This document shows positions 11,544-14,081 of a stretch of 40,138 bases of DNA, piece by piece (within the stretch, counting starts at the first letter, position 1; every line of letters begins with the position of its first letter). A program made the translations under genes and the position numbers. Origin of the DNA: a virus (lineage: Duplodnaviria; Heunggongvirae; Uroviricota; Caudoviricetes); IMG/VR virus record IMGVR_UViG_2896601577_000009; one strand, written 5' to 3'. A model generated the notes under the pieces. It was given only the letters and a program-made list of their open reading frames with translations. It was not told the DNA's origin and searched no databases.

Positions 11544-12167
11544 ATGAAAGGGTTATTATCTTTACTCATCTCTTCTATGATATTCCCCGTGCATGCCGGA
11601 ATGGTTATTTTCGGGACCCGTATCATTTACCCGGCAGAGCAGAAAGAGGTCATGGTACAACTGATGAATCAGGGAAACCGCTCTTCGCTGATGCAGGCGT
11701 GGATTGATGATGGCGACACGTCTCTGCCGCCAGAAAAGATTCAGGTTCCTTTCATGTTAACGCCACCAGTAGTGAAAGTAGCGGCCAATTCTGGGCAACA
11801 AATAAAAATTAAAATCATGCCTAATAAATTACCCAGTAATAAGGAAAGTATTTTTTATCTTAATGTTCTGGATATTCCACCGAATAGTCCAGAACAAGAA
11901 GGTAAGAATGCACTGAAGTTTGCGATGCAAAACAGAATCAAATTGTTTTACCGGCCGGCGGGTATTGCTCCGGTGAATAAAGCGACCTTTAAAAAGTTAC
12001 TGATAAATCGCAGTGGCAATGGATTGGTGATAAAAAATGACTCAGCTAATTGGGTGACGATTTCGGATGTCAAAGCTAATAATGTCAAAGTCAATTATGA
12101 AACTATTATGATTGCCCCCTTAGAAAGTCAGAGTGTTAATGTCAAAAGTAATAATGCAAACAACTGG
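11544..12167 (+). pseudogene. yehC: Periplasmic fimbrial chaperone, 3' end removed by IS1
   Basis: MKGLLSLLISSMIFPVHAGMVIFGTRIIYPAEQKEV... (PapD-like chaperone). The reading frame runs into the IS1 terminal repeat at 12168. Confidence 0.7.
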
Positions 12168-12182
12168 GGTAATGACTCCAAC

Positions 12183-12560
12183 TTATTGATAGTGTTTTAT
12201 GTTCAGATAATGCCCGATGACTTTGTCATGCAGCTCCACCGATTTTGAGAACGACAGTGACTTCCGTCCCAGCCTTGCCAGATGTTGTCTCAGATTCAGG
12301 TTATGCCGCTCAATTCGCTGCGTATATCGCTTGCTGATTACGTGCAGCTTTCCCTTCAGGCGGGATTCATACAGTGGCCAGCCATCCGTCATCCATATCA
12401 CCACGTCAAAGGGTGACAGCAAGCTCATAAGACGCCCCAGCGTCGCCATAGTGCGTTCACCGAATACGTGCGCAACAACCGTCTTCCGGAGCCTGTCATA
12501 CGCGTAAAACAGCCAGCGCTGGCGCGATTTAGCCCCGACGTATCCCCACTGTTCGTCCAT
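12183..12560 (-). CDS. insB: IS1 InsB
   Basis: Identical to the 125-aa ORF at 2739-3116. Confidence 0.85.
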
Positions 12561-12604
12561 TTCCGCGCAGACGATGACGTCACTGCCCGGCTGTATGCGC
12601 GAGG

Positions 12605-12880
12605 TTACCGACTGCGGCCTGAGTTTTTTAAGTGACGTAAAATCGTGTTGAGGCTAACGCCCATAATGCGTGCAGTTGCCCGGCATCCAACGCCATTCAT
12701 GGCCATATCAATAATTTTCTGGTGCGTACCGGGTTGAGAAGCGGTGTAAGTGAACTGCAGTTGCCATGTTTTACGGCAGTGAGAGCAGAGATAGCGCTGA
12801 TGTCCGGCAGTGCTTTTGCCGTTACGCACCACCCCGTCAGTAGCTGAACAGGAGGGACAGCTGATAGAAACAGAAGCCAC
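12605..12880 (-). CDS. insA: IS1 InsA
   Basis: Identical to the 91-aa ORF at 3161-3436. Confidence 0.9.
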
Positions 12881-12935
12881 TGGAGCACCTCAAAAACACC
12901 ATCATACACTAAATCAGTAAGTTGGCAGCATCACC

Positions 12936-13274
12936 TTAGCGATGATAAAAAATCTCACCGTCGTAGGCTTTAATGATTTTACCGTCGGTGTCGCTGATCA
13001 ACACGTACGCGCCACCCATATAGGTCCAGTGCGTCCCGGCATCAGGCGCGGGCAGGTTACGTAACTGCCACTGCTTAATGTTGTACTCATCGGTGCGGTA
13101 CATCTCTGGGACGGTATCGCCTGGTTTGAAATGCTTAAAGTCAGCAATGAAACTGCTTAACTCATACTTAGAAATTCCCGAGGTATTGGTCGAACCCGCG
13201 GTGGCTGGTGCGGCCCAGGCGGCACTGGTAACCAGCAAAAGCGCACCCAGCAACATCTTATTTTTAATGGTCAT
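12936..13274 (-). CDS. rcnB: Periplasmic nickel/cobalt homeostasis protein RcnB (YohN)
   Basis: 112-aa product MTIKNKMLLGALLLVTSAAWAAPATAG...DGEIFYHR. The stop codon directly abuts the IS1 end. Confidence 0.8.
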   Translation of the reverse strand: MTIKNKMLLGALLLVTSAAWAAPATAGSTNTSGISKYELSSFIADFKHFKPGDTVPEMYRTDEYNIKQWQLRNLPAPDAGTHWTYMGGAYVLISDTDGKIIKAYDGEIFYHR

Positions 13275-13492
13275 AAACTCTCCACTTTGGGGATCTGTAA
13301 TATCAGTCGCATATCTTTCCTGCCATACAATATAACTGACAAGCGATATTTTGTTAGTGATCCCATGATTTCGTAAAAAGTGTAAATGAAAGGATGCCCT
13401 AAAAGCATCCTTAGCGAGCAGAGAGTCAGCGGAAATAGCTGATTTAAGAATCATCCTGGGCTGAAGATAACATGCAAGCCTAAAGGATTGAG

Positions 13493-14072
13493 TTATCGCA
13501 TTATGCCCATGAAGCCATGTACGCCCATATACACACCGACTAAGCCAATCAACAGACTGGAAAAATAGGGGGCGCGTTTAGCGAGAGTGTTAAATCCGCT
13601 CCAGCGTTTTGCGACCTGCTGAACGCTGATTGCTGCGCCAACGCCTACGGTGACAAGCGTTAACGCCAGGCCAATGCTGAAACTGACGACCAGTGTTGCG
13701 CCCAGTGTCAGGGCTTTCAACTGAATGCATATCAACAGCACGGTAATTGCTGCCGGGCAGGGGATAAGGCCACCGGTTAAGCCAAATAACAAAATTTGCC
13801 AGTTGGTGACCTCTCTACCATCAAAGCGTCGTTTAATGTCATTGGCATGGGCTCGTGCATGGGCATCCTGATACTCGCCATGTTCGTGATGGTGATGATG
13901 TCCATGGTCGTGGTGATGTTCGTGATCGTGATGATGATGCTCATAATCATGCCCGTGCATATTCTCCAGCCAGTTGCGTTCGCCGCGCCAGGTACGCCAG
14001 AACATCCAGAACGCGGTGCTAATAATGATCACTGCGGAAATCAGCTGGAGCCACGGTTCTGCTGATTGAGCA
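13493..14072 (-). pseudogene. rcnA: Nickel/cobalt efflux protein RcnA, 5' end missing
   Basis: His-rich loop HGHDYEHHHHDHEHHHDHGHHHHHEHGEY and the C-terminal transmembrane segments are present. RcnA-like sequence continues in frame to about 14072 (...TAQSAEPWLQLISAVIIISTAFWMF...), where the IS66-family terminus begins. Confidence 0.8.
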
Positions 14073-14081
14073 GTAAGGCAG

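Follow-up and report, generated by a model that had tools for sequence, protein, structure and literature searches.

RcnA, RcnB, and RcnR make up the nickel-cobalt efflux system of Escherichia coli. In E. coli K-12 their genes adjoin the yeh chaperone-usher operon in the order rcnR, rcnA, rcnB, yehA, yehB, yehC, yehD, yehE, mrp, metG. Insertion of IS1111-type insertion sequences (IS) into the repeats of other mobile elements is a known theme, and IS4321 and IS5075 target the terminal repeats of the Tn21 family. Elements of the IS1111 family that insert site-specifically under the direction of a seekRNA or bridge RNA are described by Siddiquee et al. 2024 (PMC11187229). Adjacent deletions promoted by IS1 are cited in PMC8860574 for the E. 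coli K-12 gal region (Reif & Saedler 1975). Interruption, deletion, and rearrangement of genes by IS, including the loss of fimbrial adhesins, are a recognised hallmark of Shigella evolution (Hawkey et al. 2020, PMC7373316), and in Shigella flexneri 2457T yehC and yehA are pseudogenes and yehB is kept (Chanin et al. 2019, PMC6854044). The locus described here lies in a 40,138-nucleotide stretch of DNA (the window; IMG/VR virus record IMGVR_UViG_2896601577_000009) that carries the yeh-rcn region of a Shigella boydii chromosome. Two neighbouring loci have very probably been damaged there by insertion sequences in two different ways. The yeh operon appears to have lost 3,678 bp to a deletion marked by IS1, and rcnA appears to have been split by recombination between two copies of ISSso6.

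Results

An IS1-marked deletion in the yeh operon

The window was compared with E. coli K-12, with E. coli ECCTRSRTH03, whose yeh allele is that of the window, and with the S. boydii sister loci L005, L006, L008, L009 (PTES01000001.1), and L010. The features at the first breakpoint are as follows.

11544 to 12167, plus strand: yehC', a PapD-like chaperone gene cut after codon 208 of 224, whose frame continues into IS1 to 12248
12168 to 12935, minus strand: IS1 copy 2, 768 bp long and carrying insA (12605-12880) and insB' (12183-12560), ends GGTAATGACTCC... and ...GGCAGCATCACC
12936 to 13274, minus strand: rcnB, intact, 112 aa, Pfam PF11776, 99.3% identical to K-12, stop codon abutting IS1

The left flank of IS1 copy 2 (...GCAAACAACTGG) is yehC interior, and the right flank opens with TTA, the complement of the rcnB TAA stop codon (12936-12938). 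The 9-bp flanks, AACAACTGG on the left and TTAGCGATG on the right, are unrelated and there is no target duplication, as expected if a deletion came after the insertion. The element has the length of about 768 bp, the terminal inverted repeats, and the insA/insB' genes of the IS1 family. Its open reading frames (ORFs) of 91 and 125 aa are identical to sister-locus ORFs that match PF03811, PF12759, and PF03400. The copy is 99.3% identical to the other two in the window (copies 1 and 3), and the E. coli elements that match it are annotated in RefSeq as IS1A/IS1B.

Window 6461-12167 aligns to positions 13671 down to 7978 of the K-12 locus, window 12936-14079 aligns to positions 4299 down to 3156, and blastn found no further match to the K-12 stretch in the 40-kb window. 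Missing between these blocks is K-12 4300-7977 (3,678 bp), an interval that covers the 81-bp rcnB-yehA spacer, both yehA and yehB in full, and the final 51 nt of yehC. The rcnB terminator hairpin in the spacer (CCCCCTCATGATGAGGGGG), which lies just past the stop codon in K-12 and in locus L034, is absent from the window. A closer E. coli reference was sought because the yehE-yehD-yehC stretch has low identity to K-12. ECCTRSRTH03 aligns to window 6091-12167 with 99.8% identity over 6,078 bp. Against this reference, too, the gap measures exactly 3,678 bp, and its end points are unchanged. Searches of the 40-kb window for yehA, yehB, the rcnA 5' end, and rcnR by blastn, and by tblastn with K-12 YehA, YehB, the RcnA N terminus, and RcnR, gave nothing (best tblastn E > 1), and the window holds neither the usher gene yehB nor the tip adhesin gene yehA. 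Both flanks of the gap are in native order and orientation, which argues for a deletion rather than an inversion. The comparison points to an IS1-marked deletion that took out the yehC 3' end, yehB, yehA, and the spacer.

The deletion also altered the chaperone. YehC' residues 1-208 are identical to ECCTRSRTH03 YehC and the sequences then diverge, the native last 16 residues being swapped for 26 residues encoded by IS1. PapD_N is complete and PapD_C covers only profile positions 1-44 of 63, leaving only one of the two PapD domains complete.

An earlier note on this DNA, made from the sequence alone, had likened the gene content and order to the E. coli rcnA-rcnB-yehABCDE-mrp-metG neighbourhood and proposed that IS1 copy 2 joins the yehC interior to the rcnB stop codon without a target duplication, with yehB, yehA, and the yehC 3' end absent. 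The K-12 alignment matches this order, and the flank sequences confirm the junction. The absences hold in the K-12 and ECCTRSRTH03 alignments and in the blastn and tblastn searches of the window. In K-12, yehC and rcnB are not adjacent, yehB and yehA lying between them.

Route of the yeh deletion

The proposed route would begin with IS1 insertion in yehC at ...AACAACTGG. A deletion would then have extended from the insA-proximal IS1 end to the base just beyond the rcnB stop codon, and with these 3,678 bp would have gone the 3' end of yehC, the genes for the usher (yehB) and the adhesin (yehA), and the terminator that was shared. E. coli 300081 (L033) offers a likely picture of the presumed first step. 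In this strain a separate event placed IS1 in yehC as a simple insertion, 1 nt away from the position used in Shigella and in the same orientation, with the 8-bp duplication AATAACTG and with yehB and yehA intact. E. coli 21964 (L003) and 1008S19 (L004) have different IS1-bounded deletions that run from the yehC end into yehA, and in 26 E. coli genomes (e.g. CH4784, L002) IS1 lies within ~0.5 kb of the rcnB stop codon, in none of them abutting it. In commensal and clinical E. coli, IS1 has repeatedly targeted the yeh-rcnB interval.

One-ended intramolecular transposition of IS1 (an "adjacent deletion") is slightly favoured for the second step on parsimony only, as it takes two events instead of three. 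The three-event route is RecA-dependent recombination between direct IS1 copies, one in yehC and one at the rcnB stop codon, and it is a credible though somewhat less probable explanation. Both of its targets are proven for IS1, yehC (1 nt away) by strain 300081 and the rcnB-yehA spacer and yehA 3' end by the 26 genomes. Shigella genomes contain very many IS1 copies, and the three in the window all have the same orientation. Against this route, a search of 5,426 E. coli genomes gave none in which IS1 directly adjoins the rcnB stop codon, and the product of the route would be indistinguishable from that of the favoured adjacent deletion.

Five clustered substitutions at positions 91-121 of IS1 copy 2 (window 12258-12288) set it apart from copies 1 and 3 and from its orthologue in L006, L009, and L010. 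The same five are present in L005. The cluster looks like a later, short gene-conversion tract between IS1 variants. A chimeric origin of the element was considered from these differences and rejected, since the sister orthologous copy lacks them, and they carry no information on how the deletion arose.

rcnA is apparently split between two copies of ISSso6

The second breakpoint lies to the right of rcnB in the window and involves the following features.

13493 to 14077, minus strand: rcnA 3' fragment, about K-12 codons 81-274, lacking the promoter, start codon, and first transmembrane region
14078 to 15597, plus strand: ISSso6 (IS110 family, IS1111 type), 1,520 bp with a 1-nt placement ambiguity, transposase 14155/14203-15330
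15598 to 18098, minus strand: ISSfl3 (IS66 family), with tnpC at 15623-17215, tnpB at 17246-17596, and tnpA at 17593-18012, RefSeq "IS66-like element ISSfl3"

Sequence derived from rcnA stops at 14077-14079 and aligns to K-12 rcnA nt 239-825, the first 238 nt (~79 codons) being missing. The fragment matches only positions 91-285 of the 287-position Pfam NicO profile, and the window locus has no full-length NicO domain with a start codon and an N-terminal transmembrane region. In S. boydii CDC 3083-94 this fragment is annotated as a 179-aa "RcnA" (ACD07962.1).

Sister locus L009 is collinear with the window up to 15599 and then continues directly into rcnA codons 80 to 1, rcnR, thiM, and thiD, in register and with no IS66 sequence. 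Cutting ISSso6 out of L009 restores rcnA except for one missing A, and ISSso6 in L009 rcnA is by its structure a simple insertion. The 80-aa RcnA N-terminal product of L009 corresponds to ACD08061.1 in CDC 3083-94 and occurs on 279 contigs. The missing 5' half was found in the chromosome CP026867.1, which matches the window. At 7463-19705 of that record, a second ISSso6 is joined in register at its right end (CGCTTACTG...) to rcnA codons 1-80, which lie there together with rcnR, thiMD, and yegXWVU. The reciprocal junction runs from ...AAAGTAAG through ISSso6 and CGCTTACTG into the rcnA 5' end and rcnR, and the left flank of this second copy (...GGATTAAAGTAAG) is a cbtA/cbeA prophage-like region. 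The two halves of rcnA are ~198.6 kb apart in CP026867.1, across the record origin. Because the 5' fragment and rcnR-thiMD lie next to another ISSso6 in the same genome, nothing was deleted. The two ISSso6 junctions have the form of reciprocal products of recombination between two ISSso6 copies, and rcnA is best described as a gene split at a recombination breakpoint, not as a gene with a 5' deletion.

The proposed order of events would start with insertion of ISSso6 into rcnA at GTAAG^CG after codon 80, a state that is preserved in L009. Homologous recombination between this copy and another ISSso6 nested in an ISSfl3 terminal repeat would then have parted the halves. The 3' half and rcnB would have stayed in place with ISSfl3 as their new neighbour; the 5' half, with the promoter and rcnR, lies ~199 kb away in the same genome.

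A very improbable alternative is that an IS66-family element, or a composite of ISSso6 within ISSfl3, moved next to or into rcnA and that an adjacent deletion removed the first 80 codons and the upstream genes. ISSfl3 itself has the tnpA-tnpB-tnpC gene set of its family and the Pfam domains DDE_Tnp_IS66 (PF03050), TnpB_IS66 (PF05717), and HTH_Tnp_1 (PF01527), plus accessory domains. Its tnpA-proximal repeat is intact and ends at 18098, and its tnpC-proximal repeat is occupied by ISSso6 and is therefore short of its outermost 5 nt (GTAAG). The element has neither both terminal repeats (GTAAGCG...) nor an 8-bp duplication, the flanks being ATTGAGCA on one side and GGTGTATG on the other, as a composite that had undergone an adjacent deletion might have. 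Window 14073-18098 is found as one block in further genomes and in plasmids, and the GTAAG at 14073-14077 is formally a possible IS66 repeat tip. In L009, though, the identical left junction is followed after ISSso6 by rcnA codons 80 to 1 without IS66 sequence. The allegedly deleted rcnA 5' fragment, rcnR, and thiMD persist in the same genome beside another ISSso6, and the rcnA insertion site, GTAAG^CG after codon 80, fits the ISSso6 target in tktB and speC.

The earlier note's statement that rcnA lacks roughly its first 80 codons is upheld by the 238 nt missing relative to K-12 and the NicO match that begins at profile position 91. Its account of the cause is not. It had placed an IS66-family element against rcnA, which is in fact abutted by ISSso6 (14078-15597), with ISSfl3 starting only at 15598. 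It had also proposed truncation by an IS-bounded deletion, at odds with the 5' 80 codons beside the second ISSso6 ~199 kb away and with the simple insertion in L009.

ISSso6 and its target site

ISSso6 has the hallmarks of the IS110/IS1111 group. Its transposase, named "IS110-like element ISSso6" in RefSeq, contains the Pfam domains DEDD_Tnp_IS110 (PF01548) and Transposase_20 (PF02371). The subterminal inverted repeats, at 14082-14095 and 15580-15593, are 14 bp long and perfect. The 267-nt 3' non-coding region has a fold z-score of -4.7 against shuffled sequences and a 20-bp long-range stem (15348-15367/15515-15534), and is a candidate seekRNA. The fixed target shows no duplication.

The boundaries were determined from filled and empty sites in rcnA, tktB, and speC, with K-12 supplying the empty tktB and speC sites. 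They define the target (G/A)TAAG^CG(C/T) (RTAAG^CGY), deduced from only ~15 insertion sites, with no bases gained or lost in tktB and speC. In the window and in loci L009, L011-L030, and L035-L042, ISSso6 occupies sites in tktB, speC, and rcnA and, repeatedly, the GTAAGCG tip at either end of IS66-family elements, a nesting that occurs in genomes and in plasmids. The right flank of ISSso6 in the window (CGTCAACGGAGCACC...) is the ISSfl3 repeat minus GTAAG.

Other placements of the ends were considered and rejected. Matches to other genomes begin at 14073, suggesting an IS66 repeat starting there as the rcnA junction, and the filled and empty sites rejected this. GTAAGGC stands on the left of every insertion and was considered as part of ISSso6, but the native tktB and speC sites contain (G/A)TAAGCG. 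An extension rule of 7 bp left and 3 bp right (PMC11187229) does not fit the empty sites, whereas 4-5 bp left and 3-4 bp right does.

These features lead to a proposal that is given an even chance of being correct. ISSso6 would be an RNA-guided IS1111-type element that uses the IS66 repeat tip GTAAG^CG as a "safe harbour". It would have entered rcnA only after a 1-nt loss (GTAAAGCG to GTAAGCG) created a perfect target, and its nested copies would have served as portable homology for large rearrangements in S. boydii.

Source of the window and inheritance of the junctions

Window 1544-22248 is identical to CP026867.1 4410289-4430993 (100.000% over 20,705 bp), window position p corresponding to CP026867.1 position 4,408,745 + p. 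The 234-aa YehC'-IS1 fusion protein is WP_000677410.1, labelled Shigella boydii by NCBI. It occurs residue for residue in seven contigs, four of which are complete chromosomes (CP026866.1, CP001063.1, CP026867.1, and CP026872.1); no record was found for the 250-aa version of the fusion ORF that starts at an upstream ATG. By the complete match to CP026867.1 and the S. boydii protein names, the source is a Shigella boydii chromosome of the CDC 3083-94 lineage.

Insertion sequences are classic sites of misassembly, and draft genomes break there, as contig ends with partial proteins show. False joins could in principle have come from a collapse of the repeats at IS1 or ISSso6. Yet the yehC'-IS1-rcnB-rcnA'-ISSso6 structure is present in at least six independent S. 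boydii assemblies, including the four complete chromosomes and among them the Sanger-era genome CP001063.1, and the reciprocal rcnA 5' junction is present in at least eight assemblies. An assembly artefact thus has a negligible probability and is rejected. The recurrence marks the yehC'-IS1-rcnB junction as inherited.

Remaining genes and mobile elements in the window

Two intact yeh genes precede yehC'.

10334 to 10615, plus strand: yehE (DUF2574), intact, 93 aa, Pfam PF10836 (E = 2.8e-44), collinear with K-12 yehE
10914 to 11456, plus strand: yehD, fimbrial major subunit gene, intact, 180 aa, Pfam PF00419, minority allele

The major subunit gene of the Yeh chaperone-usher operon is thus present. 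The yehD gene has 76-82% identity to K-12 and at least 99% to 59 E. coli genomes. The segment from the yehE 3' end through yehD to the yehC 5' end (window ~10460-11860) is 70-85% identical to K-12 with sharp borders. Of 5,426 complete E. coli genomes, 59 share this allele with an identity of at least 99%. The segment is a minority allele and looks like an allelic replacement.

Upstream, apbC/mrp (8960-10071) has a 1-base deletion (G) at 9367 relative to E. coli ECCTRSRTH03, and the frameshift yields ORFs at 8933-9574 and 9421-10071. The gene is intact (369 aa) in sister strains L005, L006, L008, and L009, which indicates that the frameshift is specific to the window strain.

IS1 copies 1 (2724-3491) and 3 (39426-40138) have the same orientation as copy 2. 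Copy 1, flanked by CAATAGAGGCAA and AGAGTGAGGTAG, likewise has no target duplication, and it lies directly against IS600-type sequence. Judged by the genes present in the sister loci, this copy seems to link the yehR side with the yehF side, the genes between them having been lost. An unrelated IS66-family element at 231-2671 (ends GTAAGCGTACAGCC... and ...GCACGCTTAC) is a simple insertion with the 8-bp duplication GGCTCAAG. It interrupts a short gene whose sister counterpart matches DUF1307, and the site is empty in L006, L008, L009, and L010. The DNA to the right of ISSfl3 (18099-39425) holds a DUF826 gene, a copy of IS600 (~18574-19841), and a block of morphogenesis genes from a lambdoid prophage (portal, protease, and tail genes), and it ends at IS1 copy 3. 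Related IS66-family elements occupy the same prophage site in some E. coli genomes.

Discussion

Some observations weigh against the reading of two loci damaged in two ways. The absence of yehA and yehB is established within the 40-kb window only. The two IS1 routes leave an identical product and cannot be told apart by sequence, and the intermediate with IS1 exactly at the rcnB stop codon was absent from all 5,426 E. coli genomes. At rcnA, one A of the native GTAAAGCGCTT (K-12 and ECCTRSRTH03) is missing at the ISSso6 junction, where L009 has GTAAG on one side of the element and CGCTT on the other (window 14073-14079; L009 12530-12540 and 14053-14060). The base missing relative to K-12 GTAAAGCG may reflect an earlier frameshift that preceded ISSso6 or a loss at insertion. 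The two ISSso6 copies are in direct orientation in CP026867.1, so a single inversion is insufficient. An inversion is compatible with CP001063.1 and CP026866.1, where the two copies have opposite orientations. Alignment of the sister strains with the window stops at 18098, and what lies to the right of ISSfl3 varies: L006 and L008 have yohO-yehW..., L005 has an invasin-like gene, and the window has a prophage. The direct orientation together with this strain-variable DNA means that further rearrangements must be assumed. Finally, the loss of function is a deduction from the gene structures.

That deduction concerns both loci. With no usher and no adhesin gene, no Yeh fimbria is predicted to be assembled, and the chaperone is also damaged by the loss of its last 16 residues. 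RcnA would not be makeable from either fragment, and rcnB, though intact, would be severed from the native rcnA promoter and from RcnR control. That the Yeh fimbria and RcnA efflux are non-functional, as had been proposed before, is a sound prediction given the N-terminally truncated NicO domain, the truncated PapD_C domain, and the loss of yehB and yehA. Nickel and cobalt sensitivity and a lack of Yeh fimbriae are predicted for the S. boydii clade.

The decay of the yeh-rcn region belongs to an ordinary, already known class of IS-driven gene loss in Shigella. The genomes are publicly available, with annotation already in place for both rcnA fragments. No paper was found on this particular yeh deletion, a literature search for accession CP026867 was also empty, and rcnA is unmentioned in PMC7373316 and PMC6854044. 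That Shigella loses fimbriae and accessory functions through IS activity is well known; the locus is one more case of this, mapped precisely, with little importance beyond bookkeeping. At the annotation level it corrects the description of rcnA from 5'-deleted to split at a recombination breakpoint, and the shared junctions are possible clade markers. The ISSso6 target site may be of use in cataloguing natural targets of IS110/IS1111 recombinases; a preference of ISSso6 for IS66-family repeat tips is unmentioned in PMC11187229 and in the few papers that name the element.

ISSso6 resembles the IS1111 family in several respects. It has a DEDD transposase, perfect 14-bp subterminal repeats with short extensions at the termini, and, downstream of tnp, a long non-coding region that is structured, and it uses one fixed target, the terminal repeat of another mobile element, without duplication. 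Compared with the IS1111 seekRNA systems, ISSso6 is known here from sequence alone, and an Rfam scan of 13900-15800 returned no matching family. The yeh deletion resembles IS1 adjacent deletions in that one IS1 remains, the deletion starts exactly at the IS1 end, and the surviving copy has no target duplication. It differs from the case of Reif & Saedler in being a historical event fixed in a lineage, with recombination of two IS1 copies as an alternative route. The rcn locus is like that of K-12 in the 99.3% identity and same arrangement of rcnB and the 3' 195 codons of rcnA, and unlike it in that ISSso6 interrupts the gene and the first 79 codons, the promoter, and rcnR are ~199 kb away. As in known cases of Shigella decay, a chaperone-usher operon is inactivated, IS stand at the breakpoints, and rearrangements occur between IS copies. 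Unlike S. flexneri 2457T, which keeps yehB, the S. boydii lineage has both yehB and yehA physically deleted.

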